DNA of 64,000 nucleotides from an uncultured Clostridia bacterium (GCA_948891265.1 CAQUBD010000003.1:9789-73788); one strand, 5' to 3'. Positions 2,201-19,497 are shown, counted from the stretch's first letter. Notes: a model not told the origin generated them from the letters alone. Made by a program: numbers and translations.

Positions 2201-2228
2201 TCCAGCATATTGGATATTTGTAATCCAA

Positions 2229-2276
2229 TACAAAACAGCATTCTTAGACATATTTGTCAAAGGATGCTGTTTTGAT
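2229..2276 (+). terminator. Rho-independent terminator candidate after the 1724..2200 gene
   Basis: Inverted repeat aaacagcat...atgctgttt followed by T residues. Confidence 0.4.
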
Positions 2277-2281
2277 AATCA

Positions 2282-2806: not shown

Positions 2807-2822
2807 TTTTTTAATCCTTCCT

Positions 2823-3353: not shown

Positions 3354-3439
3354 TACAAATCTCCTAATTACTTAAATAAATATTAATAGTATGTTATCAT
3401 AAAAAATTCATATCTTCAACAAATTTTTACATTAATTTT

Positions 3440-3700
3440 AATCAGCCACATATCCATATCAAAACCACTAACAATATACACACTTAATTTTGTAAAAATC
3501 CCTTTTCCTGTATCATACCCTTTAAACTCCAAACAACTTTTTTTGAGTTTTTGTTTATTTTTGGCATATTAGAAGCCTGTCAAAATATCCACTTTAAAGA
3601 TATGAAAAAAAGCCCCAAGTGGATATATTAAAGGTATCCATTTGAAGCCCATTTTATATCCACTTTAATAATAAATATGGATATAAAAATTGTATAAACA
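3440..3700. promoter_or_regulatory. Cluster of about six TATCCA(C/T)TT-like motifs, direct and inverted, upstream of the cotJC-like gene
   Basis: atatccatatc (3450), atatccacttt (3589), gtggatatatt (3622, reverse), gtatccatttg (3640), atatccacttt (3656), atggatataaa (3676, reverse). Confidence 0.3.
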
Positions 3701-3754
3701 AAATAGTTCCTCCAAACAAAACGAAAACTGGCCTTGGGAAGGGGGAATGAACTA

Positions 3755-3961
3755 ATGTGGACTTATGATAAAATGTTAGAATATCCAATTAATATAAAAT
3801 GTACAGACCCAAGACTTGCAAAAGTTATTATTTCTCAATATGGAGGGCCTGACGGAGAGCTTGCAGCTTCTTTAAGATATTTATCTCAAAGATTTGGTAT
3901 GCCAGATCAAAAAGCTAAAGCTATTTTAAATGATATTGGTACTGAAGAATTAGTGCCTTGA
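3755..3961 (+). CDS. cotJC: 5' segment (fragment 1 of 3) of a CotJC-like manganese catalase family spore-coat gene, interrupted by intervening element A
   Basis: MWTYDKMLEYPINIKCTDPRLAKVIISQYGGPDGELAASLRYLSQRF...DIGTEEL matches the Mn-catalase/CotJC N-terminus (MWVYEK.LQYPV...QYGGPDGELAAALRYL...DIGTEE). An AAGGGGG RBS sits 7 nt upstream of the ATG at 3755. The tool ORF starts at 3734. Homology ends at DIGTEEL, then VP-stop. Confidence 0.8.
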   Translation: MWTYDKMLEYPINIKCTDPRLAKVIISQYGGPDGELAASLRYLSQRFGMPDQKAKAILNDIGTEELVP

Positions 3962-4120
3962 TGATGTCAATAGCTAAAGACAATATTTACAATTAGCTAT
4001 TGACTGTAAAATGTGGTATTTTGAATTTGCAATTTTATGTAAAATATGCTGTACTTTATATAGCAACTGTAAATTTTTCATTTCAAATCTTGCTGAATAG
4101 CAAGTAGAAAGTGTGACAGT

Positions 4121-4360
4121 ATGATTGATGTTATACCTATAGTAACAGCTTTTGATCAAAAAAGCATTTGTTTTTCTGTTGACATTTTTAGCGAAGGTAA
4201 AGAAGTTGGGAAAGCAAGTGTGATACTTGGTAAAATCGGAAAAGATGAACCAAAAGTGAGATTTTATCAGGCGTACGATATATACATAAATATGTCAAAT
4301 GAAATATATTCAAAAGCTACAGAATCATGCATATATGCATCTAAGGTAATTTGGGGATAG
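4121..4360 (+). CDS. Small hypothetical protein, 79 aa
   Basis: ORF with slightly elevated GC. No recognisable family. Confidence 0.3.
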   Translation: MIDVIPIVTAFDQKSICFSVDIFSEGKEVGKASVILGKIGKDEPKVRFYQAYDIYINMSNEIYSKATESCIYASKVIWG

Positions 4361-4385
4361 TAATATCCCCATTTTTTAATACTAT

Positions 4386-5942
4386 TTATTTTGGTATCTT
4401 TGGATATATATGTAATTCAAAATTAGTTGGGTTAGAATCCTTTTTTATTGCTTTTTCAGTTTTTAAATATGTAACTTTTGCTAGAATACTTTTAAGTAAG
4501 ATGTTTCTATCTTCAGCAGCTTCTAGTTTACAATATAAATCTATAACATTTTCAAGTTTTGGTATCATTATTTCTTTTTCGTTCTGTACTTCTGTACTTT
4601 TTTGCAGTATAGAACTATATTCTTCTAATTTGCTTTCTAAATTTTGAATATTATCTTTTATAGTTTTCGAGCGATTTATAAATTCATCTTTGCTATAAAT
4701 ACCATTTTCTAAAAAGTCATATATTTTATCAAGTTTAGTATTTTCTTTTTCTAATTCTTTTTTGGTAGTAGATATAGACTTTTCAATTATTTTAGTATTT
4801 TCAGTATTTGAATTATCTTTGACTTCATAATCTACTTTGTAATTTTCAAGCCAAATTTTTAATGCTTCAATAATTTTATTTTCAACAATATAAAGTTTAG
4901 AACTTACATTGTCACATTTAGAATTAGAACACATAAGAGTTGCAGGTTTATCAGCTTTTGCATAAGGTCGTCTTTGCATTGGCTTGCCACATTTCTCACA
5001 AAACACTAAACCAACTAATGGATTTTGAATAATATTACTATGTTTAACTTTTGGAGTATTTTGTTTTCGCTTTTCTTGGACTAATTCCCAAGTTTTATTA
5101 TCAATAATAGGCTCATGTAATCCATTATAAATTAAATAGTCTTGATTACGAGGTCTACTTATAATAATATGTCCATTTTTCGTTTTCTTTTTTTGTTTCC
5201 TTCTATTCCAAACAATCTTACCAATATAGGTAGGATTAGAAAGAATATCTTTAACAGAAGAAATAGTCCATTCATTAGAAATTCTAGGTTTTAAATTCAT
5301 ATCATTTAACTGTTTTACAACTGAATTTATAGTGTTACTTTCAAAGGTATATAATCTAAAAATTTCTTTAACAATAGGTGCTTCATCTTGATTTACAGAT
5401 AAAGAATAGCCTTTTGAATCTTTTAGTTTAACTCTATCATATCCAAATGGAGCAATATTGCCAACGAATTTACCTTCAGAAACAGAAATTTCACGACCTC
5501 TTTGTAGACGCCTATTGATTGTCTTATATTCTCTTCTAGACATAAATAAGCCAAATTCAAAATATTCTTCATCAAACTCATTATCTGGGTCATAGGTTTT
5601 AACAGGTGTAATAATTTTTGTATGAGAATATTTAAAAGCCTTTGAAACTCTACCTTGATCAGCAGTATCACCACGAGCAAGTCTTTCTACTTCTACAACT
5701 AAAACACCAGTCCATTTCTCATTTTCAACATCTTTAAGAAGTTTTTGCATTTCTTTTCTTTCACTAATCGTTTCACCACTTACAACTTCTCTATAAATTT
5801 TTGAGATATGTAGGTTTCGTTTTTCAGCTAAAGTAGTTAGAATTTTCTCATGTCTTGCTAAAGTTTCGCCTTCTCCATATTTTTCAGATTCTATATCTTC
5901 TCTTGATTTTCTTAAATATATTGCATATGTGCCATCTTGCAC
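4386..5942 (-). CDS. Large serine recombinase, 518 aa
   Basis: N-terminus AIYLRKSREDIESEKYGEG... (S-R-E-D catalytic motif). It also has a recombinase domain, a Cys-containing zinc-ribbon region (CEKCGKPM...CSNSKC) and a coiled-coil C-terminus. Confidence 0.9.
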   Translation of the reverse strand: MQDGTYAIYLRKSREDIESEKYGEGETLARHEKILTTLAEKRNLHISKIYREVVSGETISERKEMQKLLKDVENEKWTGVLVVEVERLARGDTADQGRVSKAFKYSHTKIITPVKTYDPDNEFDEEYFEFGLFMSRREYKTINRRLQRGREISVSEGKFVGNIAPFGYDRVKLKDSKGYSLSVNQDEAPIVKEIFRLYTFESNTINSVVKQLNDMNLKPRISNEWTISSVKDILSNPTYIGKIVWNRRKQKKKTKNGHIIISRPRNQDYLIYNGLHEPIIDNKTWELVQEKRKQNTPKVKHSNIIQNPLVGLVFCEKCGKPMQRRPYAKADKPATLMCSNSKCDNVSSKLYIVENKIIEALKIWLENYKVDYEVKDNSNTENTKIIEKSISTTKKELEKENTKLDKIYDFLENGIYSKDEFINRSKTIKDNIQNLESKLEEYSSILQKSTEVQNEKEIMIPKLENVIDLYCKLEAAEDRNILLKSILAKVTYLKTEKAIKKDSNPTNFELHIYPKIPK

Positions 5943-6005
5943 ATTTCCTCCTTTCCTTGTAATTTGTCTTTAACTTAGCCTTATTATATCTGTAATTGCA
6001 ACAAA

Positions 6006-6149
6006 TTACAACAAAGAAGGATTTATTTTTTTTATTAAATTAACAATAACATTATCTATATATTCTTTTTGATTAGTCGTATTTTCTACAATATAATCAT
6101 CATAAAATTTTACTTTAGTATTTTCTAATATGTATTCTTCTAATAACAT
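6006..6149 (-). CDS. Small ORF (47 aa) immediately upstream of the recombinase; candidate accessory factor
   Basis: An AAGAGG RBS precedes the internal ATG. The tool ORF runs 6006..6218. No homology recognised. Confidence 0.25.
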   Translation of the reverse strand: MLLEEYILENTKVKFYDDYIVENTTNQKEYIDNVIVNLIKKINPSLL

Positions 6150-6354
6150 ATAAATCGCCTCTTTAAAATTTATGAAAAAAATATAAAAAAATACCCAAGA
6201 CAAACTTGTCTTGAGCAAATTTATATTTTTTCTATGATAGCATTATATGATGGGCAATTTATAAAATCAATTCCCTTTTATTTCCCTTTTTTCTAAATTA
6301 GTTAGTAATAGAAATAAGATTTATTTAAATAAGATAAAAGTAGAAAATAAATTC

Positions 6355-6383
6355 TTGCAAATACGATAATTTTATGTTAATAT
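6355..6383 (+). promoter_or_regulatory. Sigma-A-like promoter candidate for the radical SAM gene
   Basis: ttgcaa, then 17 nt, then taatat, about 50 nt upstream of the ATG at 6435. Confidence 0.3.
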
Positions 6384-6434
6384 TAATATTAGTTTAAAGT
6401 TAGCAAAAAATAAAAATAGAAAGGATATGATTAT

Positions 6435-7352
6435 ATGAATTCTAAATATGTTGCTATTGCAGTTACTACTGAATGTAACTTGAAATGTCCATATTGCCAA
6501 AGTACAGGAGAAAGTATTCCAAATGTGCAAGGTATGTGGGATTATAACCGGTTAAGAGAAGTTATAACAGCTTTTTTAGAAGTTGGTTATAGGAATTTTA
6601 GAATTACAGGTGGAGAACCTACCACAGTTCCATATTTAGGAGAATTATTAGATTTTCTTCTACAAGATTCTGATGTGAAAGTACGAATAAATACCAATGG
6701 TTGTGATATAGAAAAATATGTAGACCATTTAAGCTCGCAAACAGAAGTAATATTTAGTGTAGATGGATTAAAAAATGTTTTTTTTCCTAAAAGGTTAACA
6801 GATGAGTTACTAAGGAAAATACAATATTTGCAGTCAAAAAACATTTCAATAAGACTAAACTGTGTAGTTACAAAACACAATTCCAATGAAATACTTGAAT
6901 TAATACAATTTTGTTCTAAAGAAGGATTGAATTTAAAATTGCTTGATTTGTCTCCTAGAACAGACTATCAGGGAAAAATTCAGAATGATTTTTGGAATAA
7001 TAACTACTTTGGATTAAACAAATTGTGTATTCCTTTTCCTAAGGTTGCTTCGGAATTTAGAACCAGTATGATAAAAAAGGGAACAGGAATACCTATGAGT
7101 GGATATAGTTTAGGAAACGGACATTGGCTACAAATAAAGGATTCTAGTAAGAAACCTTATTATGCTTTAGTATGTAAGTATTGTCCTTATAAAGATAATT
7201 GTATAGAAGGTGTATTTTCTCTTTCATTATCTGTTGGTGAAATTTTAAGAGTAGCCAATTGTGTTAATCAAAATTATTGGATAAAACTTAGAGGTTTGAA
7301 TCAAAGACAAATTGAAGAAGAACTAAAGAAAATGGAAAAAATCTTTTTTTAA
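6435..7352 (+). CDS. Radical SAM protein (MoaA-like core with a C-terminal Cys cluster), function unknown
   Basis: CNLKCPYC (Cx3Cx2C) and the FRITGGEPT glycine-rich SAM motif. C-terminal CKYCPYKDNC...C resembles a twitch/SPASM-like auxiliary cluster. Confidence 0.85.
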   Translation: MNSKYVAIAVTTECNLKCPYCQSTGESIPNVQGMWDYNRLREVITAFLEVGYRNFRITGGEPTTVPYLGELLDFLLQDSDVKVRINTNGCDIEKYVDHLSSQTEVIFSVDGLKNVFFPKRLTDELLRKIQYLQSKNISIRLNCVVTKHNSNEILELIQFCSKEGLNLKLLDLSPRTDYQGKIQNDFWNNNYFGLNKLCIPFPKVASEFRTSMIKKGTGIPMSGYSLGNGHWLQIKDSSKKPYYALVCKYCPYKDNCIEGVFSLSLSVGEILRVANCVNQNYWIKLRGLNQRQIEEELKKMEKIFF

Positions 7353-7372
7353 GTAATAATTAAAAAACAAAA

Positions 7373-7397
7373 AGCGAGGGAAACCTCGTTTTTTCTA
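7373..7397 (+). terminator. Rho-independent terminator after the radical SAM gene
   Basis: gcgagggaaacctcg hairpin followed by tttttt. Confidence 0.55.
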
Positions 7398-8104
7398 AAT
7401 TATTTAAAAAACTTAGAATTTATAATAATATTAGAAATAGAAAATTATTATAATTTTACAAAAATTTGAATCTATAAAGAGTGATTTAATCCGTTATAAC
7501 AATTCTAATGTGCTTTATAAAATCAAGTCAAGGTTAAAATGAATGTGCTATCGCACAACCTTGACTTAATTTTATAAGCACATTGTCTTTTCAGTTAAGA
7601 GGATTTAAGGATAAGTATATTTAATTAAGTAGACATAAGTACATTTCAAGAGCAAAATACCTCATTAGAAATGAGGGCAGGAAAGAGAGTGTTCACACAT
7701 CGCTTATACACATTGAAGGACAAGCCTTCAAGAGTTAATAAAAGAACAAAAATTTTAAGCAGATATGATGTAGAAATTCACTGGGTGAACTGGTTCAAAC
7801 CCGCTATTCTTCGTTGAAATTGGAAATAGTGAACTAAAAAATTAAAAAAGTTCACTCATTTTAGGCAAAAGTTCACCAAGTGTACTAAAAAATTTTCTGA
7901 AATTTTGTAAAACAGTTACCGAGGAATCCTCGATAACTAGTTATAATAATACAAATTACAAAAATTTTAAGCTTGTTCCAAAATGGAACAAGCTCACTTT
8001 GTGTACTTAGTATTTGTGAAAATTTGTTAAAAAGTATTGATTTTGCAAATAAAATAACTTATAATGAATATAATAGTAGTGGATATTTAATATCTACTAT
8101 AATT

Positions 8105-8227
8105 AAAAATGTGAGTCGCAACCCTATTTGCGTCGAATAAATGGATAGGTGAAAAAATGTGAACCGCAACCCTGCTTGCGAGATATAAATGTGCAGGTGG
8201 AAAAATGTTAATTATAGTAAAATGTGG
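8105..8227 (+). ncRNA. Candidate type III antitoxin RNA (ToxI-like): 2 full and 1 partial tandem repeat of ~47-49 nt
   Basis: R1 is 8105-8151 and R2 is 8152-8200; each begins AAAAATGTGA. R1-R2 identity is about 80%, with compensatory changes cctat...atagg (R1) versus cctgc...gcagg (R2) that preserve a stem. A partial third unit (8201-8227) repeats the AAAAATGT boundary motif. Placement is promoter-like region, then repeats, then terminator, then toxin gene. Confidence 0.6.
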
Positions 8228-8260
8228 GGTCTATAAAATTAATTTAGATCCCATATTTTC
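8227..8260 (+). terminator. Terminator between the repeat array and the toxin gene, as in toxIN-type loci
   Basis: Stem gggtcta/tagatcc (7 bp, one G-U pair) followed by cauauuuuc. Confidence 0.45.
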
Positions 8261-8280
8261 ATAAAAGGAGTTAAATAATA

Positions 8281-8757
8281 ATGATAATAGAAGATGGAAA
8301 ATTTTATTTTATAAAAGATGAGTTTTTTGATATATTTAAAGATTATAAATTGATGGAAAACAAAGAATGCGGAAATAAAAGACCTTGCTACTTTTGCTTT
8401 AGAGATAGAAAAAACAAAGAAATAATATGGTTTGTTCCAATATCGACTAAATATGATAAATATAAAAAGATATATGATAATAAAAAATTAAAAATTGGAA
8501 ATAAACCAGTATATAATTTTGTTTTTGGTAATGTATTAGGTAAAAAAGCTGTATTTTTAATACAAAATATATTTCCAACAACAGAAGAATATATATTAGA
8601 GAAATATACAAATTCAAATATAGATGTAGAAATACCTACAGTAGTAAAAAATGAAATTATAACTACTGCATTAAGAGTTGTGAGACTTGCAGAAGAAGGC
8701 ATACATATTCCATTTTATAATATTGTTGAAATGAGAAATATTTTGTTAAAAGAATAA
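8281..8757 (+). CDS. ToxN/AbiQ-family type III toxin (endoribonuclease) candidate, 158 aa
   Basis: KFYFIKDEFFDIFKDYK...KRPCYFCF...WFVPISTKYDK follows the ToxN/AbiQ pattern (FY.I...Y...L..FD....RP..G......YFAPLSSPK). Size ~160-170 aa, AGGAG RBS. Confidence 0.6.
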   Translation: MIIEDGKFYFIKDEFFDIFKDYKLMENKECGNKRPCYFCFRDRKNKEIIWFVPISTKYDKYKKIYDNKKLKIGNKPVYNFVFGNVLGKKAVFLIQNIFPTTEEYILEKYTNSNIDVEIPTVVKNEIITTALRVVRLAEEGIHIPFYNIVEMRNILLKE

Positions 8758-8772
8758 AGAATAAAAAATATC

Positions 8773-8797
8773 ATATGTGCAGAAATTGCACATATGG
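8773..8797. repeat. Perfect 10-bp palindrome catatgtgca-gaaatt-tgcacatatg downstream of the toxin gene
   Basis: Inverted repeat seen directly. An A-run precedes it on the + strand, so it would act as a terminator only for the minus strand. Confidence 0.4.
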
Positions 8798-8962
8798 GCA
8801 ATAATAAAAAACAACAGTAAATTATAAGTTATAATAATTTAAAACGAAAATAAACTTAATCCGTTCACTTAGTGTACTAGTTTAATGCACCAAGTGAACT
8901 TATTTAAATTTATAGTATTTTACAGCCAATAGTACTAGATTTTTTGTAATTGACATCATCAT

Positions 8963-9085
8963 GGTACTGAAGAATTAGCACACTTAGAAATGGTTGGAAC
9001 AATAGTACACCAATTAACAAAAAATGCATCAATAGAAGAAATTGAAAAAGCGGGATTAAGTGCATATTATACAGATCATGGGGTG
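8963..9085 (+). CDS. cotJC: Middle segment (fragment 2 of 3) of the CotJC-like Mn-catalase gene
   Basis: GTEELAHLEMVGTIVHQLTKNASIEEIEKAGLSAYYTDHGV matches the central Mn-catalase region (DIGTEELAHLEMIATMVYKLTKDATPEQLREAGL..HY.DHG). The frame runs into a stop at 9092 after leaving homology. Confidence 0.75.
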
Positions 9086-9134
9086 GGTTTGTAATATCTC
9101 CTAATCCTGCTTTTTATTTTTTACTAATATAAAA

Positions 9135-9968
9135 TTAATTATCATTTTCAAATAATTCTTTAATATATAATTCTCTATTTTTAAGTTCATTGTTTTTACC
9201 TTGTAATAAATTCTCAAAAAACATTACTAAATAATCAAATGTAGGATAAATTCCTTTTGGAATATTTCCATAGTTACTTCTAACTAGTGCATTTCTAAAA
9301 TATAAGCTTTTATCTTTAAACATATCATTATTAACATTAAATCCCATATTATTAAGATATTTTTCAATAAATACTGCTGTAGTTCTAGTATTTCCTTCTC
9401 CAAATGGATGTACTTGCCAAATGCTTGAAGTGAATTTTGAAATATGTTTAATTAATTCATCATTATTTAGTTTTGAATAATCAAATTCTTTTTCTTCTTT
9501 AAAATCATAATCAAAATAGCTTTCTATATCTTGATAATTTACATATTTAACGGTATGGCCATTTAGGATGTTCTCTTTTTTGGTAATATTATAATTCCTA
9601 TAATTACCTGCAAAATCATAAATATCTTTAAATAGGTATTTATGAATATTCTTTAAAGTAATAGGACTAAAACCAAAGCTCTTATCTTCTAAAAGCTGTG
9701 CTATTCTTAAAGATACTAAATCGCATTCTTTTTCTTTTTGAATATTTATATCATTATGATTTTGTGTTTCATAATATGTTTTTAATAAGTTTTCTACTTC
9801 GTAATATTTTAATTCTCCATTAATATTTTTTTCAGATAAGTCTAATAAATATTTAGAAGGCTTTAAATTATCAACTTTATTTAATCCAATACCCGTATTC
9901 CAATATTCTTGTTTTTTTGTAGTATCAGTTATTTCATTTTCAATTATATAATTTTCTTCATTAGACAT
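9135..9968 (-). CDS. Fic/DOC family protein (putative AMPylator / toxin-like)
   Basis: HPFGEGNTRTTAVF matches the Fic motif HPFx(D/E)GNGR with one substitution. Length 277 aa. Confidence 0.8.
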   Translation of the reverse strand: MSNEENYIIENEITDTTKKQEYWNTGIGLNKVDNLKPSKYLLDLSEKNINGELKYYEVENLLKTYYETQNHNDINIQKEKECDLVSLRIAQLLEDKSFGFSPITLKNIHKYLFKDIYDFAGNYRNYNITKKENILNGHTVKYVNYQDIESYFDYDFKEEKEFDYSKLNNDELIKHISKFTSSIWQVHPFGEGNTRTTAVFIEKYLNNMGFNVNNDMFKDKSLYFRNALVRSNYGNIPKGIYPTFDYLVMFFENLLQGKNNELKNRELYIKELFENDN

Positions 9969-10045
9969 ATAAAAACCTCCTAAAATTTCTCTTTTTCATA
10001 CCTTAATATTATACCATAAAATGCCTAAACTTACTATAGTTTTGC

Positions 10046-11674
10046 CTAAAAATTCCAATGAATTACAACATCTTGAGTTTTAGTCTTTTTGTCTGCTCTG
10101 CAAATTTCATCTGTAACAGGCAAAGCCTTAACAGCTGAAAATTTTTCTCCAATTTCAATATAATCTATAAAGCTATTAACAATATCATAATTAAGTTCTT
10201 TAAAATCTTTAAAGTGATTAATTATTTTCTCTTTTTGTTCTTTTATAAATTTACTGTTTAATTCTTTTTCCTTTAAATTAGATAAATCATTTTCGACTTT
10301 TATTAGTTCTTTTTGCTTTGCTGATTTATCAGATAAAAAAGAGGAGTTTAAATCTTCAAATACATCTTCTGGAACTTTGCCACTTACTTTGTTTAAGTAA
10401 AGTTCTTTTATAGCTTTATTAATGCTTTCCATATCTTTAGATAAAGTTTCTTTTTTGTTTTCTAGTAATTTGGATTTATTTATGTTGTCATTTGAAACAA
10501 ATAACTCATCAGAAATATTATCAAAGTCATAAAATGCTAAAATTTTCTCTTTAATTTTTTCTGTTACTAAATTTTTAAGATTTTCATAGCCAATAGAATG
10601 TGTAGTGCAAGTTCCATATAACTTTCTAGAGCCTTTACAAGAAAAATAAATGTAACCTCTATCATTTTTGCATTTATAAAGTTTTGTTCCACAATCTAAA
10701 CATACTAGCTTATTAGCAAATATATGAACTTCGCCATTTTTACATCTTCTTGTTTTATTTTTAAAGATTTCTTGAACTTTATAAAATTGTTCTTTAGTAA
10801 TAATAGGTTCGTGAGTATTTTCTACAATAATCCATTCTGATTTAGGCTGATTTACCATTTTTTTAGATTTATAGCTTACTTTTTTATTATAACCTTGTAC
10901 CAAATTACCAATATAAACTTCATTTTTCAGTATTTTACTGACTGTAGATTCACACCAATAGTCAATATTTTTGCCTTGATTTCTAAAATTAATTCCTTGT
11001 GACTGTTTATATTTAGTTGGTGTTAAAATACCTTTGTCGTTTAATATTTGAGCAATTTTAGTAACACCATTTCCTTGTTCATAAAGGTTAAAAATCAATT
11101 TAATAACATCGGCTACTTCTGTATCAATAACAAGTTTATTTTTATTCTCTGGACTTCTTTTATATCCATAGCACACAAAAGAGCCAATATGTAATCCTTG
11201 TTTTCTTTTACTATCAAATGTTTTTCTAATATTTTCTGATAAATCCTCTAAATACCACTCATTAACTAAACCATTGATTTGTCTTGATTTCTTATTTCCT
11301 TTATCTAATGTATCAACATGATCTACAAGGCTAACAAATCTAATATTCCACTCGATAAATTTATTGTGTAGGTATTTTTCAACTATTTCCATATCACGAG
11401 TAAATCTACTTTGTGTTTTACAAAGTACAATATCAAATTTATGGCTTTTAGCATCTTCTAATAATTTATTAAATTCAGGTCGTTCACTGTCGATTCCAGA
11501 ATAGTCCTCATCACAGTAAATGTTATAAATATCCCAGCTCCTTTCTATTGCATAATTGATTAGCATAGATTTTTGATTTTGGATACTTTCGCTTTCATCG
11601 TTTTCGTGTAGTTTGTCATCATCTTCACGAGAAAGCCTACAATAAATTGCCACTCTCATAAGTTTACCCTCCAA
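10046..11674 (-). CDS. Large serine recombinase, 542 aa
   Basis: MRVAIYCRLSREDD... catalytic motif, a recombinase domain, a Cys zinc-ribbon (CLDCGTKLYKC...C) and a coiled-coil C-terminal region. Confidence 0.9.
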   Translation of the reverse strand: MEGKLMRVAIYCRLSREDDDKLHENDESESIQNQKSMLINYAIERSWDIYNIYCDEDYSGIDSERPEFNKLLEDAKSHKFDIVLCKTQSRFTRDMEIVEKYLHNKFIEWNIRFVSLVDHVDTLDKGNKKSRQINGLVNEWYLEDLSENIRKTFDSKRKQGLHIGSFVCYGYKRSPENKNKLVIDTEVADVIKLIFNLYEQGNGVTKIAQILNDKGILTPTKYKQSQGINFRNQGKNIDYWCESTVSKILKNEVYIGNLVQGYNKKVSYKSKKMVNQPKSEWIIVENTHEPIITKEQFYKVQEIFKNKTRRCKNGEVHIFANKLVCLDCGTKLYKCKNDRGYIYFSCKGSRKLYGTCTTHSIGYENLKNLVTEKIKEKILAFYDFDNISDELFVSNDNINKSKLLENKKETLSKDMESINKAIKELYLNKVSGKVPEDVFEDLNSSFLSDKSAKQKELIKVENDLSNLKEKELNSKFIKEQKEKIINHFKDFKELNYDIVNSFIDYIEIGEKFSAVKALPVTDEICRADKKTKTQDVVIHWNF

Positions 11675-11724
11675 TCGGTAAACTACTCATTTTGTACAAC
11701 CCCATTATACAATAACAAGTAGTT

Positions 11725-11853
11725 TTAATCAACGCTCTTTGCAAATTCATTTATAATTAATTTATTAACAATATTATTTATATATTTTATAATATCATCT
11801 ATATTTTCATATTTGTTCTTTTCAATAACATTAAAATTAACTTTTTCGCACAT
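11725..11853 (-). CDS. Small ORF (42 aa) upstream of the recombinase; candidate excision/directionality factor or regulator
   Basis: Strong GGAGGAAC RBS 5 nt before the ATG; MCEKVNFNVIEKNKYENIDDIIKYINNIVNKLIINEFAKSVD. No homology recognised. Confidence 0.3.
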   Translation of the reverse strand: MCEKVNFNVIEKNKYENIDDIIKYINNIVNKLIINEFAKSVD

Positions 11854-12058
11854 AACAGGTTCCTCCTTTTAGCAAGAGCTCCCATACTCCTGCTATTAAT
11901 TCATATTCAAAAGGGCTTGTATTTGTGCTAAAAAGCAAAAAAATAAAGCCCTTTTACAATCTTGGCTTTAAAATAAAAATATATTTAATTAACATATGTT
12001 TTTCCTCATTTCTTACTATATAAAAACAAAATTTTATTAAAAATCTAATAAAATCTTG

Positions 12059-12526
12059 TTACCTACTAAAACAACATACATGTTTATATTTTTGTATTGG
12101 TACTTTGATATTCATATTTATAGTTTTTGGAATATCAAATCCGACTTTTAATTTTCTATCTATTACTAAATTTCCTTTACTATTTGTATGATAAGAACTT
12201 GAATTCCATTTTGCAAAAGCATAGTCTGACATAATATTAGTAGTATAAGATAATTCTATTGCATCTTGTTTTTGCTGTGATATCATTTGTTCATAACTGT
12301 TGTCATCTTTCTTTGGTCTGTCATAAGTTTTAAGATATTCTTGTAAATAAACTTTTCTATTTTTAGCATTTGTTTTTTTACGAGTTTCCTTTTCTTGTTT
12401 GTTTCTATTGTCAGCTTTTACAACCTTTGAAACATAAGGACAGCTTTTTCCAACTATTTTAGCAATTTCATTTTGTTTTAGATGGTCATTATAATATAAG
12501 TTTAAAATCTGTTCTTTAGTATTCAA
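12059..12526 (-). CDS. Helix-turn-helix DNA-binding protein (sigma-70 region-4-like HTH at the N-terminus)
   Basis: LKQNEIAKIVGKSCPYVSKVV is a typical HTH. The long basic tail is uncharacterised. Confidence 0.55.
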   Translation of the reverse strand: MNTKEQILNLYYNDHLKQNEIAKIVGKSCPYVSKVVKADNRNKQEKETRKKTNAKNRKVYLQEYLKTYDRPKKDDNSYEQMISQQKQDAIELSYTTNIMSDYAFAKWNSSSYHTNSKGNLVIDRKLKVGFDIPKTINMNIKVPIQKYKHVCCFSR

Positions 12527-12585
12527 TTTTTCTTTTTCCTCCTTTGGTTAACTTTTTGTTTGCAAGATTTTAAATACAATTCGCC

Positions 12586-12614
12586 TATTGACATTTGTTA
12601 TTAATTGTTGTATT
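12586..12614 (+). promoter_or_regulatory. Sigma-A-like promoter candidate
   Basis: ttgaca, then 17 nt, then tattat, in the divergent intergenic region upstream of 12744. Confidence 0.35.
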
Positions 12615-12743
12615 ATTATATTGTAAAAAATCTTACATAATAATTTCATATTGTTATTATACGATTATAATTTATATTTGTCAATACAATTTTAAACATT
12701 TTATTAAAATTTTTTACAAAACAAAAAACGAAGGAGATAAAAA

Positions 12744-13877
12744 ATGAGAGAATTACCTCGCCATCTTGTTTTAGAAGATTTCTATATATGGTTTAATATG
12801 AAAGATAAAGAAGAATATTATGCAACACCATTATATTTATATAATGTATTAAGAAAAGATACAGACAAAGAAAATGATGAAGAAAAAAAGAAAGATGAAA
12901 CAAGAGTATATTTAGAGTTAGAAAAGGATATTTCAAAAACAAAATTAAATAAGAAAAAAGAAGTTATTAGACAACCTTCAACTATTTATATTCATTATGC
13001 AGAAAGCATAGGCTCATTGTTAATAAATTTTTTAAATGCTGACTTTTCATCTTTTCAATCTGCTTATAATACATTTTTTTATGCCTATGGTTTTGAATTA
13101 ATAAAAGAATATACACCTTACATATATTCAAAAACTGATGAGTGTATAACAGATGTAGAATTTATGAAAATGTTAGAAGATATTTATAACACAAGCCTAG
13201 ATGATTTATTAGAATGGCAAGATAATTTCAAGAAATGTGTAGATTTTGTATATAACTTAAATGGAAATGAAGAATTAAAAGAATATAATACATATTCAAA
13301 ATTTGTTGCTTATACAATTAAACACAACGAACTTTATACATATTCACAAGATGTAGAGGTTATATTAGATAATTATATAAATATACACAACCATCATCAC
13401 AATGAAAGTATAGAATATTTAATAAAAGGTATTGAAGATAAAAATCCAAATTTAGAATTACACAATGTTTATACAAGTACAAAATTGAGAAGTATTTGTT
13501 TTACTATATTAGATCAACTTGTAAGACAAGAAAATCTATCAATTAAAACTTGCCAAATTTGTGGTAGATATTTCATACCAACCTTTAGACAAAATGAAAT
13601 TTATTGTGATTTGAAAAATGTTGATGGTACACCAACTTGTAGAGATAAGGGAGCAAGTGAAACTTATAAAAAGAGTCTTAAAAGTAATCCAGCATTATTA
13701 CTTTATAGAAGAACATATCAGCAAAAGGTTATGACAGTATATAGAAACAAAGAAAATAAGCAATTAAAGAAAGATTTTGACAAATGGAAAAAAGAAGCAC
13801 AAGAAAAAATTAAATTATTCAAAAAAGGCAAACTAGATGAAGATACTTTGTATAATTGGATGATTGAAAATAAATAG
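12744..13877 (+). CDS. Hypothetical protein (377 aa) with a C-terminal Cys cluster; possible TnpY-like accessory protein
   Basis: C-terminal CQICGRYF...YCDL...PTCRDKG zinc-ribbon-like cluster. No family confidently recognised. Confidence 0.55.
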   Translation: MRELPRHLVLEDFYIWFNMKDKEEYYATPLYLYNVLRKDTDKENDEEKKKDETRVYLELEKDISKTKLNKKKEVIRQPSTIYIHYAESIGSLLINFLNADFSSFQSAYNTFFYAYGFELIKEYTPYIYSKTDECITDVEFMKMLEDIYNTSLDDLLEWQDNFKKCVDFVYNLNGNEELKEYNTYSKFVAYTIKHNELYTYSQDVEVILDNYINIHNHHHNESIEYLIKGIEDKNPNLELHNVYTSTKLRSICFTILDQLVRQENLSIKTCQICGRYFIPTFRQNEIYCDLKNVDGTPTCRDKGASETYKKSLKSNPALLLYRRTYQQKVMTVYRNKENKQLKKDFDKWKKEAQEKIKLFKKGKLDEDTLYNWMIENK

Positions 13878-13881
13878 AAAT

Positions 13882-13916
13882 AAATCCCTAAGTAAATTAA
13901 CTACTATAGGGATTTA
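13882..13916. terminator. Bidirectional terminator hairpin between convergent genes
   Basis: aaatcccta...tagggattt, a 9-bp perfect stem. Confidence 0.45.
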
Positions 13917-13939
13917 TTTCGTATGTGAGGAATCAATTA

Positions 13940-14293
13940 TTACTTATACTTTTTATTATTTCTTTCGTCATTTTTCTTTGCATCTATTGCCAGCATAACA
14001 ATGCCTATCATAGATAGAACGGCAATAGGCGCAGCTACATAAGGTTCCATCCAACCTTTTGTACTGCTTATAATTGAACACGCACATATAACACAGAGAA
14101 GAAAAAATAATAAGAAAAAATGAGTGACTGATATGAATTTATCATACAAGTTTGATTCCTCTGATTTTCTTACAAATTGTTCAAGAGCTTTATCTTCAAA
14201 AGGTTCTGACCGCTCTTGTTCTTCTAACATCTGTTGAAATTCTTCTTCTGACATTTCTAGAGCTTTTTTTACTGTCATTCTCTTGTCATCCAT
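13940..14293 (-). CDS. Hypothetical membrane protein (two C-terminal TM helices), higher GC
   Basis: Hydrophobic segments FFLLFFLLCVICACSII and APIAVLSMIGIVMLAI. Confidence 0.45.
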   Translation of the reverse strand: MDDKRMTVKKALEMSEEEFQQMLEEQERSEPFEDKALEQFVRKSEESNLYDKFISVTHFFLLFFLLCVICACSIISSTKGWMEPYVAAPIAVLSMIGIVMLAIDAKKNDERNNKKYK

Positions 14294-14483
14294 AAAATTT
14301 ACCTCCTATTATTATGTTGGAATTTTCCATTACATTGTCAATTATATCAAAAAATTCTCTAAAATATTTGTATTTTACATAAAAATATGATAAACTATTA
14401 AATATAAAATTTTATAATCTCCTTTTGGAGTTTATCATAGATAACAAGTAAACAGCACAATTAATATTGGAGGAGGTAAACAT

Positions 14484-14882
14484 ATGAAAGTAAAAACAGA
14501 ATATGTATCTATAACTCAGGCAGAAAGGATATTCGAAGTTATAAAGCAATCATTAAGCGTTACAAAGGATATTCAAATTTTTGTAGCAGAAGAATTGATT
14601 AAAGAATTACGGAGAAATGGCGTAGAACACCATGTTTATGAATTTAACGGAATGGGTTGTCATCATTATAATAAAGATGATGATGGTTTTGGAGGAGAAA
14701 CTTGGTATGGATATCATAAAGAACATGCTTTTTCACCTGTAATATCTTCAGCAAGCTTTATTTCCAATTGTAAAGGTTATTATCAGTTAGTAGAATTTCC
14801 AAATAAGAAAGTTCCAAGTGATTATTTACACTATGCAGTGGGATTTAAGGAATTGTTATTGATTGAAGTAGATACAATCTAA
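14484..14882 (+). CDS. Hypothetical protein, higher GC
   Basis: ORF preceded by a GGAGGAGG RBS. No family recognised. Confidence 0.5.
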   Translation: MKVKTEYVSITQAERIFEVIKQSLSVTKDIQIFVAEELIKELRRNGVEHHVYEFNGMGCHHYNKDDDGFGGETWYGYHKEHAFSPVISSASFISNCKGYYQLVEFPNKKVPSDYLHYAVGFKELLLIEVDTI

Positions 14883-14924
14883 AAAAGAGTAGCTTGTAAA
14901 CACATTTGTTAAGGAGGTACCAAA

Positions 14925-15116
14925 ATGGCGAATGAAAGAAATGTAGATTTAATGAACAATTTCGACAAGAGAAATGTTGAAAGTATTGACAAGCATATTA
15001 GAGAAGATGAACTTCCCCAAGAAGTATATGGAATGCTTGTTGATGAATCTGGACACGGAAAAGTCAAAGTATCAGAAGAAAGCAGAAAAATTTGTGCAAA
15101 AAATCTTTTGAAATGA
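14925..15116 (+). CDS. Small hypothetical protein, 63 aa
   Basis: AAGGAGG RBS. A terminator hairpin (aatgagag...ctctcatt, 15140-15175) follows. Confidence 0.4.
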   Translation: MANERNVDLMNNFDKRNVESIDKHIREDELPQEVYGMLVDESGHGKVKVSEESRKICAKNLLK

Positions 15117-15192
15117 TTTTTAAATTTCAAATCGCTAATGGAATGAGAGCCTATATGGACTCTCATTTCATTTCTACGATTTATATCTTATA

Positions 15193-16371
15193 TCAAATTT
15201 CTAAATCCCACTCTTTTTCTCTTTCTTCATGTTCAAGTTGTTTTACTGGATCAATAAATGTATGAGTGTCTTCTTCAAATTTTTTAACTAATTCTTTTGA
15301 TTCGCCAATACCAAATTTATGGCAAATCCAAACTATAAATTTATCAACAGTTTCATAGAATTTATCTATAATTTTGTGTAAATGACTATTTTCCTTTTCT
15401 AAACTTTTAATTTTACTTTTATATTTCCATTCAATATCAAATTCTTTTTCCTTATATTCTGCTTTAATATTGTTTACTTGATTATGAAGTTCTTTATTAT
15501 CAGCAAGTATAGAGTTTCTTTCTTTTTGATATTTTTCAGCTACATTAACTAAATTTACCTGTTTGGATAGTTCATTATGCAATTTTAAATTTTCTTGATA
15601 CAATTCCATAATTTTATCATCTTTTGGCTTAATAATTTCGTTTTCTACTTTTTCTCTATTAAGTTTTATTAGTTTAATATCATTTATATCTGGAGTTTCG
15701 GGTAATTCTAGTTTTATATTATCTAAAATCTTTTTAGTGTTTTCAAAATTAGTCAATTTCTTTAAATCCTCAATTTTTTCGTGTTTTGCACCAGTTTCTT
15801 CTACTGGTAAACCTCGCTCTAAATCAAACCCTTTTGAAGTTATATATTTGTGAAAAGCATTTTGTAGTTGTCTGTAACTATCTCTGCCTTTCCAAAAATC
15901 TCTACAGCATATTTTATCAATGTCATTTCCTTCTTTATCTTTTGTATGGATTACTGGTATATACACTAAATGCATGTGTGGAGTGGTTTCATCTAAATGT
16001 ACTGCTGCTGATACAATATACTTTTCTTCAAGATTATTATAATTACATACAAATTTATAACTTTCTTTAAAATATCTTTTAGTTTCTTCTAAACCAATCT
16101 TATTAAAAAAAGCATTATCAGAAGTAATCATTATTTCACACATGATATTACTATTACTTCTAATAGTGCCTTTTAAATCATATTCCTTTTTCATTTTATC
16201 AAATTCTTTTATATAAGTTAATTCGTTTTTCTTACACCAAAAATTGAGATGTGTTCTTGTAGGATCAATATCTTTATTAGAATGACCTTTTGACCTTCTA
16301 TCATTGTGAATGTATGATCCTTGTGCATCCACTCTTGTTAATTTATCATTTCTTATAATAGCATAGCTCAT
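15193..16371 (-). CDS. mob: MobV-family (Pre/Mob, pMV158 MobM-like) mobilization relaxase
   Basis: N-terminus MSYAIIRNDKLTR...HNDR...HSNKDIDPTRTHLN and HLDETTPHMHLVYIP (HxDE...PHxH) match MobM motifs. The coiled-coil C-terminus is typical of the family. Confidence 0.85.
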   Translation of the reverse strand: MSYAIIRNDKLTRVDAQGSYIHNDRRSKGHSNKDIDPTRTHLNFWCKKNELTYIKEFDKMKKEYDLKGTIRSNSNIMCEIMITSDNAFFNKIGLEETKRYFKESYKFVCNYNNLEEKYIVSAAVHLDETTPHMHLVYIPVIHTKDKEGNDIDKICCRDFWKGRDSYRQLQNAFHKYITSKGFDLERGLPVEETGAKHEKIEDLKKLTNFENTKKILDNIKLELPETPDINDIKLIKLNREKVENEIIKPKDDKIMELYQENLKLHNELSKQVNLVNVAEKYQKERNSILADNKELHNQVNNIKAEYKEKEFDIEWKYKSKIKSLEKENSHLHKIIDKFYETVDKFIVWICHKFGIGESKELVKKFEEDTHTFIDPVKQLEHEEREKEWDLEI

Positions 16372-16389
16372 ATCTTCTTTGAACCTCCT

Positions 16390-16560
16390 TCTTTGCTCAA
16401 GATATTCTTTGAATGTCTAACATACTAGACAAACAAGTTTGTCCCGTATGGCAGGGTTTAGCAACCCTACAACCCAAACCTAAAAATTGCTACTCGCATT
16501 TTTAGATTATTTCATAAAAAATGCTTATCGCAATTTTTATGAAATATGAGCAAAAAAATA
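16390..16560. promoter_or_regulatory. Candidate oriT / mob promoter region
   Basis: Inverted repeats gacaaac-aa-gtttgtc (16420-16437), agggtt-tagc-aaccct (16445-16460) and tcataaaaa...tttttatga (16510-16545), immediately upstream of the relaxase gene. Confidence 0.3.
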
Positions 16561-17242
16561 AATTTTTTTACTCATTTCACTTTAGCAACTATCAAGCAGA
16601 AGCCAGAGGGAGAGAGATAAAGTGAATTAGGTGTAATAATCCCATTTGTGAAAAATAGAATTATTACACCTATATAAGTTGAAACCGTCGGTCGTTCGCC
16701 TCGTTTCATAGGTAGTCTAGTAAGTAGTGATATTACTACTATAATTGCTGATGCTTAGGCTGTTAAACTTTTAGTTGTTACAGCCTAAGTATGCAAAATA
16801 ATTGAAAATTATTTTGTATTACCTTACATCTTTGTTCATACTTGCCCAAACTTTTTACAATTACAAATCCATATCAAATATGCCACCGAATACTCTTTTA
16901 TTATTGTGAGTCTGTGTTCTAAAATCTCACTCACGCACTTTGTATAATTAGACTGCTTATACTAATACGCGCATACTTTATAGCATCGGCTTGCTAAACC
17001 AAGAACTTTTATAGAGGTTCTGCATATCTCTTGCAATAAAAAAAGACATCTGTAACTTTTGCATTACAAATGACTTTCTTATTTAATATTTAATTATCTT
17101 TGTCCTCACAATCGATTTTAAGCAGAATAAAATTGTAAGGTAATAAATAATGCCTACAAAAAAATGTAGGCATAAAACTTCTTGTACAAAATAAGTAGTT
17201 ACATATATATTTTCTTTTAGGATAGATAACAAACACACACCA

Positions 17243-17566
17243 CACGGTGTAGATGTATACCCATCATCAGCAGCAGGAGTACCATTTACAGCAGCATATA
17301 TAGCATGTAAAGGAGATCCAATAGCAAATCTACAGGAAGACTTAGCAGCAGAGCAAAAAGCCAGAGCAACTTATGAAAAATTAATAAACTTATGTAGAGA
17401 TAATCCAGATGTAGTAGATCCACTTCGTTTCTTAAGAGAAAGAGAAGTAGTACACTTCCAAAGATTTGGAGAAGCATTAAGAGGAGTACAAGACAAATTA
17501 GCTGAAAAGAAGTTTTATATGAATGACATGAAACCTTATACAAATGATTGTGGATGTAATAAATAA
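17243..17566 (+). CDS. cotJC: 3' segment (fragment 3 of 3) of the CotJC-like Mn-catalase gene
   Basis: HGVDVYPSSAAGVPFTAAYIACKGDPIANLQEDLAAEQKARATYEKLINLCRDNPDVVDPLRFLREREVVHFQRFGEAL... matches the Mn-catalase C-terminal half (NAAGVPFTAAYIQAKGDP...AAEEKARATY...DPLRFLREREIVH.QRF). Stop at 17564-17566. Confidence 0.8.
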   Translation, partial: HGVDVYPSSAAGVPFTAAYIACKGDPIANLQEDLAAEQKARATYEKLINLCRDNPDVVDPLRFLREREVVHFQRFGEALRGVQDKLAEKKFYMNDMKPYTNDCGCNK

Positions 17567-17578
17567 TAAAAGAAAAAG

Positions 17579-17634
17579 CAGGATCTGAACGATACCCAAA
17601 AAAAGTAGAGTTCAGATAATCCTGTTTTTTTTGT
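17579..17634 (+). terminator. Rho-independent terminator after the cotJC-like gene
   Basis: caggatctgaac...gttcagataatcctg stem followed by tttttttt. Confidence 0.6.
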
Positions 17635-17739
17635 ATGTATTTAATATTGAGAATAAAATTTTAGAAATATATCGCAAAATAATATTTTTATGTTATAATG
17701 ATAGTGAAAAAAGAAAATAGAAGAAATTATTAAATAAAT

Positions 17740-18087
17740 TTGATAAAGGAAAATAATATGAATAAAGATGAAATTGTAAAATTTTGTTTAACATTACCTA
17801 GCACATTTGAAGACTATCCTTTTCCAAATGACAGTATTAGTACAGTAATGAAACATACAAAAAATAGAAAATGGTTTGCATTACTGATGGAAGTCAAAGG
17901 AGAATTATATTTAAATGTAAAAACAGAACCTGATTACTCTGATATATTAAGAAATACTTATGATTATATTATTCCAGCATATCACATGAACAAGGAACAT
18001 TGGAACACAATAGTTGTTAGCAACAAAGCAGATAAAACAATAATAAAAGAACTTATTAGCCAGAGTTATGAATTAACTAAAAAATAA
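17740..18087 (+). CDS. MmcQ/YjbR family DNA-binding protein
   Basis: FCLTLPSTFEDYPFPND...WFAL...AYHMNKEHWNTI resembles YjbR-family proteins. The start may be the ATG at 17758 (MNKDEI). Confidence 0.65.
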   Translation: MIKENNMNKDEIVKFCLTLPSTFEDYPFPNDSISTVMKHTKNRKWFALLMEVKGELYLNVKTEPDYSDILRNTYDYIIPAYHMNKEHWNTIVVSNKADKTIIKELISQSYELTKK

Positions 18088-18363
18088 TATTCACAAAAGA
18101 TAAAAATACTATTAAAAGGTCATATTCTTATGGAAAAAGAAATTATATAGGATTATCTGAAGATGAACAGATAGAAAGAGTTTATCTACATTTAAAGGAT
18201 AAATATGGTGAAAACGGATATGCAAAAGTCTATTTAGAAGATAAGGAATTTGAAAATGCTTTGTATAAATTAAGACAAGCATTAGAAGATAAGAATGAGT
18301 TCATTAAAAGAGTAAGAAAAGTAGTTAATGAAATATAAAATATTTTAGAGGTGGAGTGTTGAT

Positions 18364-19011: not shown

Positions 19012-19029
19012 ATTAAAGGAGTGAATGAA

Positions 19030-19485: not shown

Positions 19486-19497
19486 AAATTAAAAGAA

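Follow-up and report, generated by a model that had tools for sequence, protein, structure and literature searches.

Programmed excision of an intervening element by a large serine recombinase (LSR) has been described for several sporulation genes. In SPβ, which interrupts spsM, the recombinase gene sprA is driven by σA and is constitutive, while the 58-aa recombination directionality factor (RDF) SprB is produced from a σE/K promoter, and a 16-bp core common to all attachment (att) sites lies inside a perfect inverted repeat of attP (PMC5499854). In the C. difficile skin element, the LSR CD1231 is driven by σA in all cells, and the 72-aa RDF CD1234, which sets the timing, depends on σE and SpoIIID, its transcription starting 14 bp ahead of the first codon (PMC5025042). 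The gin element in gerE of Bacillus cereus encodes the LSR GirC together with the 42-aa RDF GirX (PMC5595907), and PhiS63 is a functional sigK-intervening prophage (PMC3442830). In heterocysts, ten genes carry multiple interruption elements, including four in nifD of Rivularia (PMC4874684), and nifBHDK of Calothrix is found in 13 parts (PMC11249958). Here we describe the cotJ spore-coat operon in a stretch of 64,000 nucleotides from an uncultured Clostridia bacterium (GCA_948891265.1, CAQUBD010000003.1:9789-73788; hereafter the window). In this uncultured gut Clostridium of 26% GC, the operon is divided into four pieces by three unrelated integrative elements, of which element 1 (El1) and element 2 (El2) split cotJC and element 3 (El3) splits cotJB.

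The locus resembles the C. difficile skin element in that a clostridial element interrupts a mother-cell gene, but skin is one element in the essential sporulation regulator sigK, whereas cotJ is a structural operon, probably dispensable, with three elements. Like gin, the cotJ elements are non-phage intervening elements that combine an LSR with a tiny open reading frame (ORF), of 42 aa for GirX and 42-52 aa in cotJ. However, gin is a single 28.6-kb element with three recombinase genes, one of which is used, while cotJ has three elements at three sites with one recombinase each. The nif, hup and fdx elements of cyanobacterial heterocysts are similar in that a single gene or operon of a terminally differentiated cell can hold several of them and every element brings its own recombinase, often of the serine type, although the phylum and the cell type are different. 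The cotJ case is thus not a new category, since several elements per gene are already documented in heterocysts. A first-pass annotation of the window had known of no described case of a gene split by two such elements, and this claim of novelty was too strong. A preprint that cites Abe et al. (2013) already names cotJC among the genes in which elements frequently integrate (bioRxiv 10.1101/2021.11.22.469490), nif genes with many elements are known (PMC4874684, PMC11249958), and we found cotJC in three pieces in at least 19 contigs. Our literature search found no experimental study of cotJC rearrangement, the work of Abe et al. (2013) being known to us through the citing preprint, nor any account of a sporulation gene or operon that holds two or three elements.

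The window contains one CotJC-type gene in three co-linear pieces, which are separated by two independent LSR elements. On the plus strand, piece 1 (3755-3953) comprises codons 1-66, with its final 16 bp (3938-3953) forming the core of attL1; piece 2 (8963-9078) comprises codons 62 to ~100, with its initial 16 bp forming the core of attR1; and piece 3 (17245-17566) comprises codons ~101-206 plus the stop. The translations of these stretches were exactly as the first-pass annotation had given them, and the intact homologue P0001 aligned co-linearly with the three pieces through its residues 1-67, 62-102 and 97-205 (E-values of 1.6e-39, 2.6e-20 and 8e-68, respectively) and with no further CotJC-like stretch in the rest of the window. 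When the pieces are joined without the short duplicated cores, they yield an in-frame protein of 206 aa, in agreement with the ~205 aa predicted earlier. The alignment to a Mn-catalase profile that had been proposed as a check gave one continuous match of the joined protein to Pfam Mn_catalase (PF05067), covering residues 1-184 and profile positions 1-197, at an E-value of 6.7e-55 and 186.5 bits against a cutoff of 27. Both joins are located inside invariant motifs, GTEELAH and YYTDHGVD, and each motif is restored exactly. Hundreds of uninterrupted proteins of 205-209 aa share 93-94% identity with the joined protein. Against NCBIfam NF052557, the canonical bacterial Mn catalase, it scored 97.7 bits, below the cutoff of 350, and it is of the short CotJC type rather than a 268-aa catalase. 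Each of the two gaps contains a complete LSR gene (4386-5942 and 10046-11674), as had been stated, with Resolvase, Recombinase and Zn_ribbon_recom domains. Contrary to the first-pass annotation, El1 and El2 are neither nested nor in tandem but occupy two separate sites ~100 bp apart. The third element, which is cut by the left edge of the window and splits cotJB, had been missed.

El1 (3954-8962, 5.0 kb) carries a SprA-type recombination module. Its 16-bp core GGTACTGAAGAATTAG is present as a direct repeat at 3938-3953 and 8963-8978, and 13-bp perfect inverted repeats are positioned just inside this direct repeat. The reconstructed attP reads ATTGACATCATCA, a 22-bp spacer that contains the 16-bp core, and TGATGATGTCAAT. 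LSR1 (4386-5942, minus strand) is a protein of 518 aa with the three Pfam domains named above; it aligns with SprA/YokA of SPβ over the full length (E 1.5e-46), and among its closest phage relatives are the integrases of Paenibacillus phage phiIBB_P123 (48% identical) and of Clostridium phage PhiS63 (41% identical). El1 therefore corresponds to SPβ/spsM in its full-length SprA-like LSR and in the 16-bp core within a perfect attP inverted repeat, and also in splitting a spore-envelope gene of the mother cell and in having a σA-type promoter of its own for the recombinase. On the other hand, El1 is only 5 kb in length and has no phage structural genes, its target is cotJC and not spsM, and the small ORF directly upstream of its recombinase has no similarity to SprB. 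Excision during sporulation is established for SPβ, while for El1 we infer it. The comparison with phiIBB_P123 (Fernvirus) extends to the att site: the sequence 30 nt past the integrase gene of the phage, ATTGATAACACCATGGTACAGAAGA, is nearly the same as the El1-type right arm plus cotJC core of contig L005. Because of this near-match, El1 has its recombination module in common with a real temperate phage, and phiIBB_P123 is predicted to integrate into cotJC, although it is, unlike El1, a complete temperate phage of 41 kb.

El2 (9079-17244, ~8.2 kb) is an integrative mobilisable element. Its junction has a short core in the His-Gly codons and imperfect inverted ends. When we compared the junctions of the window with those of three metagenome contigs (L004, L005 and L006), the element side was constant and the host side was variable, and the simplest reading therefore places the crossover at CA within the His codon, a position that the coordinates given assume (±3 bp). 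LSR2 (10046-11674, minus strand; 542 aa) has the three Pfam LSR domains and a DUF4368 C-terminal tail. It matches TnpX and SprA weakly (E ~1e-11; for TnpX 1.8e-11, in the N-terminal domain only), and its closest named relative is TndX, at 33% identity. El2 also encodes a MOBV-type relaxase (Mob_Pre, PF01076, E 1.9e-38; 15193-16371, minus strand; 392 aa), and a 45-nt hairpin with a 20-bp stem at 16628-16672 (minus strand), ~260-300 bp upstream of the relaxase gene, is a plausible origin of transfer. With its DUF4368-tailed LSR and its Mob_Pre relaxase, El2, which is evidently mobile between hosts, is in part reminiscent of Tn4451/Tn4453 and Tn5397 (TnpX and TndX recombinases; TnpZ Mob/Pre relaxase in Tn4451), although the similarity of LSR2 to TnpX is weak. 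Tn4451-family elements have low target specificity and use many sites that resemble the transposon joint. In contrast, the El2 lineage was found at one exact cotJC codon in 57 of 57 informative contigs, and El2 carries no antibiotic-resistance cargo. Thus, the analogy to skin and SPβ that the first-pass annotation had drawn for both elements holds for El1, with its SprA-like LSR and SPβ-type att sites, but fails for El2, which is mobile, has a relaxase and is not a skin-like relic.

Comparison of El2 between hosts points to very recent movement. El2 was identical in L005 over 8,157 bp (100% identity, 0 mismatches), and L004 and L006 had 0 mismatches over 2,812 and 4,807 bp, respectively, while the cotJC pieces flanking these identical copies were only 72-79% identical to those of the window (78% for L005), and the cotJC C-termini and the downstream genes of these contigs differ from the window. 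Judging from these alignments, El2 is an active, currently mobile element, and its insertions into one and the same codon of distinct host alleles are very recent. To pass from one genome into the next it has to leave the first, and El2 can thus evidently excise. The JGI metagenome contig L007, which matches window positions 1-11732 at 99.9% identity (L007 3567-15298) and extends 3.5 kb further to the left, departs from the window past 11732, just beyond the LSR2 start, with a variant small ORF and another El2 interior (L007 15298-15942); near-identical hosts thus bear different El2 variants at one site.

The same contig revealed the operon context. The closest intact cotJC alleles sit in cotJA-cotJB-cotJC operons, with the stop of cotJB overlapping the start of cotJC. 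Neither cotJA nor cotJB was found as such within the window, but in L007 both cotJA (PF11007) and cotJB (PF12652) are present upstream of cotJC, with El3 in between. This operon upstream of El3 rules out the possibility that cotJC is an orphan paralogue. The alignment of L007 cotJB ends at residue 100 of 107, and El3 splits cotJB 8 codons ahead of its stop. In the window, the 3' tail of cotJB, WPWEGGMN followed by the stop, is located at 3729-3755 (plus strand), and its stop overlaps the cotJC ATG (TAATG). Joining ...EEPW of L007 and PWEGGMN of the window at their common TGG gives ...EEPWPWEGGMN and the stop, which matches the terminus of intact CotJB, ...EEPWPWERGNF and the stop. El3 has the core TGG and imperfect inverted ends, and the same arrangement is found in the relatives L019, L023 and L029. 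The right-hand ~3.7 kb of El3 are in the window (1-3728), while the whole element, whose left end lies beyond the window, is ~5.3 kb (L007 ~1972-7294). The window edge leaves the first 386 codons of LSR3, a protein of 516 aa (1-1160, minus strand; 99.5% to L007 LSR3 by tblastn), and in L007 its Resolvase, Recombinase and zinc-ribbon domains are all present. The N-terminal catalytic domain of LSR3 is closest to TnpX (E 1.2e-32). In this respect LSR3, and LSR2 through TndX (33%), are similar to the recombinases of Tn4451 and Tn5397, although the sequence identity is low. The three recombinases are only 24-33% identical to each other in pairs, LSR3 being 33% identical to LSR2 and 24% to LSR1, and the R-x-S motif is visible near the N-terminus of all three. 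Beyond LSR1-LSR3, no further LSR was found within the window.

We then examined where the relatives of each recombinase are located. In a scan of species-representative genomes, members of the LSR1 clade (63-97% identity) were accompanied, in the flank available, by cotJC broken at residues 61-67 in all 21 loci, most of which belong to metagenome-assembled genomes (MAGs) of uncultured Clostridium or Clostridia from the gut, with mouse and rabbit among the sources. Three relatives at 40-45% identity, in Paenibacillus lacisoli, in a Ruminococcus MAG and in Muricoprocola aceti, likewise lie next to cotJC fragments whose end or start is at the El1 site. In a metagenome scan, 67 contigs contained members of the LSR2 clade (79-97% identity), and cotJC was broken at residues ~97-104 in 57 of them; nine of the other ten did not have enough flank, and one (L107) had a rearranged gene order. 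None of the 67 contigs had LSR2 beside an unbroken cotJC. The elements of this clade ranged from 2.9 kb, with little beyond the LSR and the small upstream ORF, to 10.6 kb. LSR3-type recombinases (55-97% identity) were found beside cotJ pieces in L019, L023, L029, L045, L047 and L107; the cotJB junction EEPW/PWE (the slash marks the break, here and below) could be read in L019, L023 and L029, and the same site was uninterrupted in eight other loci. Each LSR lineage is therefore tied to one codon site, namely EEPW/PWE in cotJB, GTEEL in cotJC and TDHG in cotJC. Combinations are frequent as well: the at least 19 contigs with a three-piece cotJC combine an El1-type element with an LSR2-clade element, L045 and L047 have El2-type and El3-type elements together, and L019 has El3 and El1. 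In many uncultured Clostridia of the gut, the cotJ coat operon is a common landing pad for no fewer than three lineages of recombinase.

Some loci in these scans deviate from the simple pattern. L014, L018 and L026 have extra LSR1-like genes or fragments (48-84% identical) between the main LSR1 element and cotJC piece 1; related elements seem to be arrayed in tandem at GTEEL in these loci, and some of them have decayed. In the Ruminococcus MAG locus L038 (3608-11989), a ~7.7-kb insert separates cotJB from a cotJC with unbroken GTEEL and has an LSR1-like recombinase (40%) at its right end, which would be yet another site in the cotJ operon. The N-side cotJC of L082 (copies at 7767-8159 and 2277-2570) runs through TDHG to ...DPIANL/KEFK and a stop, while the second copy restarts at HG/V beyond the LSR2 element, and the truncated CotJC protein P0184 (137 aa, 8 contigs) breaks off at ...LQEDLAA/DK; both could reflect an additional insertion site around residues 129-135, or else a composite element with a fragment of a gene on board. 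Two other irregularities did not stand. An apparent overlap of C-terminal pieces (residues 71-204; L072, L077-L080 and L096) was a low-identity extension of the alignment in L077, which has the normal HG/V join, and the others are assumed to be alike. A suspected fusion of CotJC and LSR, which would have linked recombinase expression to the cotJ promoter, was rejected, as the 532-aa recombinases in CotJC clusters are plain LSR3-like proteins with no CotJC part; their occurrence (e.g. P0168, 165 contigs) in CotJC clusters of 90% identity is apparently a quirk of the cluster table.

The split alleles are well preserved. Among 11 complete split cotJC alleles from the genome scan, the median pairwise ratio of nonsynonymous to synonymous divergence (dN/dS) was 0.12, in the same range as against intact alleles, and stops and frameshifts were absent in 10 of 11. 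Rebuilding also gave a full-length ORF (195-214 aa) for each of 15 distinct alleles in the metagenome and window loci. The first-pass annotation had suggested a search for uninterrupted alleles in related genomes, and exact look-up of 10 rebuilt proteins from related loci showed that seven exist elsewhere uninterrupted; one of them is annotated as 'manganese containing catalase [Clostridium sp. CAG:440]' and is present on 830 contigs. These exact counterparts confirm the predicted joins to the residue and show that the insertions are polymorphic. Moreover, an identical rebuilt protein was obtained from L081 and L097, which have an El2-type element only, and from L084, which has El1-type and El2-type elements, indicating that the presence of an El1-type element can vary within one host allele. 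With regard to the recombinases, the LSR1 genes show synonymous divergences (dS) of 0.44-1.25 with dN/dS of ~0.15, and on these values LSR1 is an old lineage under constraint, while the stripped-down 2.9-kb elements, which have no cargo or transfer genes, retain an intact LSR2. One lineage has decayed. L109 (5154-5466) and L110 (12185-12497), from two samples, have a common 1-bp insertion in cotJC, GATATA-C-GGAACTGAAGAA, exactly at the El1 core; cotJC is frameshifted, and LSR2 is also frameshifted near codon 203. This could be a coupled decay of gene and recombinase, which a functional link between the two would predict, or the scar of an imprecise excision, and it is a single case.

Directly upstream of each LSR gene and on the same strand, a small ORF with a good ribosome-binding site (RBS) was found. 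The ORF of El1 (6006-6149, minus strand; 47 aa) has a dN/dS of ~0.25 and was detected at 20 of 21 genome loci of the LSR1 clade, the upstream flank being absent from the remaining one (L011); that of El2 (11725-11853, minus strand; 42 aa) is conserved across 42 distinct upstream sequences of the LSR2 clade; and that of El3 (1195-1353, minus strand; 52 aa), with RBS and start, is also a gene call in L007 and L125. From their position, size and conservation, we infer that these ORFs are candidate RDFs. A σA-like promoter is located between the small ORF and LSR1 (TTGTAA-17-TATAAT, 5983-6011, minus strand), conserved across the LSR1-clade loci compared, and likewise between the small ORF and LSR2 (TTGATT-17-TATAAT preceded by TG, 11704-11732, minus strand), conserved in the 42 LSR2-clade sequences. 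El1 has another σA-like promoter further upstream (6242-6270, minus strand), followed by a terminator of a hairpin and a T-run at 6192-6217. After this terminator, a conserved TCATAAAT box stands ~8 nt ahead of the small ORF and its RBS, as counted from the RBS; the placement of this -10-like box is a further likeness to the C. difficile skin element, and the box resembles the TCATATAAT box ahead of cotJA in L007 in form and position. The order of terminator, conserved box, small ORF, σA-like promoter and LSR is the same in the LSR1 and LSR2 clades. As a side observation, AAGACAA(A/G) occurs in both arms of the hairpin at 6192-6217 (minus strand) and in the conserved LSR1 5' leader at ~5950-5975 (minus strand). 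The core of SpoIIID boxes in B. subtilis is RRACAR. Speculatively, the repeated sequence fits this core, but it does not fit the C. difficile consensus KRTAACARK (PMC5025042).

How these parts might work together can be considered as follows. Integration is recombination of attP with attB at a short core common to the element and the gene, and precise excision thus restores the reading frame to the residue. All insertions are inside the coding regions of cotJB and cotJC, the elements encode their own LSR and are bounded by att sites that share the core, and in silico excision produced in-frame joins with the invariant motifs restored. In B. subtilis, cotJ is expressed in the mother cell under σE. 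Each LSR gene would be expressed alone, from the σA-like promoter in El1 and El2, and the small upstream ORF of 42-52 aa would act as the directionality factor, so that its expression would trigger excision. As in SPβ/spsM, skin/sigK and gin/gerE, the terminal mother cell would be the most likely place for the three orthogonal excisions; CotJB and CotJC would then be made in that cell, and the spore genome would retain all three elements. By analogy with these systems, we consider it somewhat probable that all three elements are excised in the mother cell through the small-ORF RDFs, with CotJB and CotJC made there and the elements kept in the spore. More tentatively, and as a possibility that we take seriously, we suggest that the cotJ operon of many gut Clostridia is a three-lock developmental switch, in which three mutually orthogonal LSR/RDF pairs of different lineages, each tied to one conserved codon, would all need to fire in one mother cell before CotJB and CotJC could be made, the spore meanwhile inheriting the three elements intact.

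Several observations weigh against such a developmental role. First, the small ORFs gave nothing better than an E-value of ~0.04 against Pfam and PHROGs, and against PDB, including the SprA-SprB fusion chain, the best E-value was ~1 with no resemblance to SprB. Second, inspection by eye of the regions upstream of the small ORFs recognised no σE or σK promoter with confidence; only a -10-like box of CATA type is conserved, and the conserved TCATAAAT box is merely suggestive of a sporulation promoter. Third, attP (circular junction) sequences of all three elements were searched in every contig collected and none was found, a weak negative because assemblies rarely capture the minority mother-cell DNA, and a viral collection searched with the El1-type attP pattern gave one matching contig only, equal in length to phiIBB_P123; similarly, the rejoined CotJC of the window was absent from ~15 billion proteins in an exact look-up. 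Fourth, the synonymous divergences of LSR1 and cotJC are hardly correlated (r = 0.17), which leaves a long vertical co-inheritance of the two unsupported. Because the insertions are polymorphic and these divergences are uncorrelated, the integrity of the split ORFs could partly reflect recent insertion. Fifth, El2 must excise in dividing cells to spread, and its excision is therefore not confined to sporulation. Finally, simple inactivation could be tolerated, since B. subtilis and C. difficile mutants that have lost cotJC-type genes are mild in phenotype (PMC12122855, PMC11222575).

A first alternative explanation is that the elements are ordinary site-specific mobile elements in a dispensable operon, which stays off in carriers; excision would be sporadic and serve transfer, and the pieces would look intact owing to the youth of the insertions. 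Conserved target motifs would then offer a broad host range at little cost. This explanation fits the very recent insertions implied by an identical El2 in four host alleles, the polymorphism implied by the exact intact counterparts of seven of ten split alleles, the lack of correlation between LSR1 and cotJC, the mild mutant phenotypes (PMC12122855, PMC11222575), and the fact that neither a sporulation promoter nor excision products were found. Nevertheless, we regard it as rather unlikely. Against it, three unrelated LSR lineages converge on one mother-cell operon, as in proven intervening elements, and the old LSR1 lineage (dS 0.44-1.25) is still always at the cotJC site, with 10 of 11 complete split alleles free of stops and frameshifts. 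The minimal 2.9-kb elements, although devoid of cargo and transfer genes, keep an intact LSR, and the conserved layout of small ORF and promoter is the same as in SPβ and the C. difficile skin element. In addition, SprA and the PhiS63 integrase, which are among the closest characterised relatives of LSR1, both have sporulation genes as their targets.

A second explanation is that the three elements have different fates, the SprA-like El1 being developmental and El2, El3 or both not, so that the operon of a triple carrier stays broken in the mother cell. TnpX and TndX excise without a separate RDF, for transposition and not for development, and LSR3 is closest to TnpX in its catalytic domain while LSR2 has DUF4368 and travels with a relaxase; the spread of El2 also points to a lifestyle independent of sporulation. 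However, small ORF and σA-like promoter are laid out in the LSR2 clade as they are in El1, the specificity of LSR2 and LSR3 for cotJ codons is strict, unlike that of the looser TnpX, and carriers of two elements (at least 19 contigs) or three (the window and L007) are common with intact pieces, and we therefore find a mixed fate improbable. A chimeric contig assembled from fragments of different strains can be practically dismissed, as the same junctions occur in independent JGI, ENA, Logan and NCBI assemblies, the att sites have proper form, the joins keep the reading frame and some rebuilt proteins are exact matches of existing intact ones, even though the source is metagenomic or MAG-like and the gene order of L107 is odd.

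If the excisions are developmental, programmed gene rebuilding in spore formers would exceed one element per gene and would extend to combinatorial multi-lock arrangements, so far known only from cyanobacterial heterocysts. Should the three-lock switch itself be true, it would represent the first case of a sporulation operon rearranged by several elements in a programmed manner and a natural set of orthogonal LSR/RDF/att triplets that already work side by side, within ~100 bp. Because El2 is spreading now, spore-coat composition may vary between strains with their element load. The cotJ locus provides three co-resident, presumably orthogonal serine integrases with defined attB, attP, attL and attR sites and candidate RDFs, and these integrases and the minimal 2.9-kb elements are useful for genome-engineering toolkits.

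The remaining contents of the elements are mostly cargo genes. El1 encodes a radical SAM protein of 305 aa (6435-7352, plus strand; Pfam Radical_SAM, E 7e-16), which also gives a weak partial match to the prokaryotic viperin pVip of PADLOC (E 1.9e-14), an ORF of 158 aa (8281-8757, plus strand; phrog_33519, E 6e-19) that is present in several El1-type loci, and an ORF of 79 aa. The ~930 bp between the radical SAM gene and the 158-aa ORF contain no convincing ORF; a 78-nt inverted self-match is found at 7507-7584 and a bidirectional terminator-like hairpin with a 13-bp stem at 7968-7996, and an Rfam scan of window positions 1-20000 gave no matches. In El2, a Fic-domain protein of 277 aa (9135-9968, minus strand; Pfam Fic) matches the PADLOC candidate defence family PDC-S72 (E 4.9e-98), so the radical SAM and Fic cargo may be defence-related. 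El2 further encodes an ORF of 155 aa (12059-12526, minus strand) with weak matches to helix-turn-helix and sigma-r4-like families, all below thresholds, and a DUF6076 protein of 377 aa (12744-13877, plus strand). El3 carries an ORF of 163 aa (1709-2200, plus strand), which has no match in Pfam, PHROG or PADLOC and is also found beside LSR3 in L107; it is not homologous to the 158-aa ORF of El1, and the two were therefore rejected as a common accessory factor. The cargo of El3 also includes a pair of ORFs for histidine phosphatases, at 2282-2929 (Pfam His_Phos_1, E 2.8e-34) and at 2823-3353 (E 1.6e-37) on the minus strand. These overlap by ~100 nt in the mechanical ORF list, while the gene call in L007 shortens the downstream ORF to 198 aa. 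The pair are tandem paralogues, and a similar gene is present in the El2-type elements of L055 and L059.

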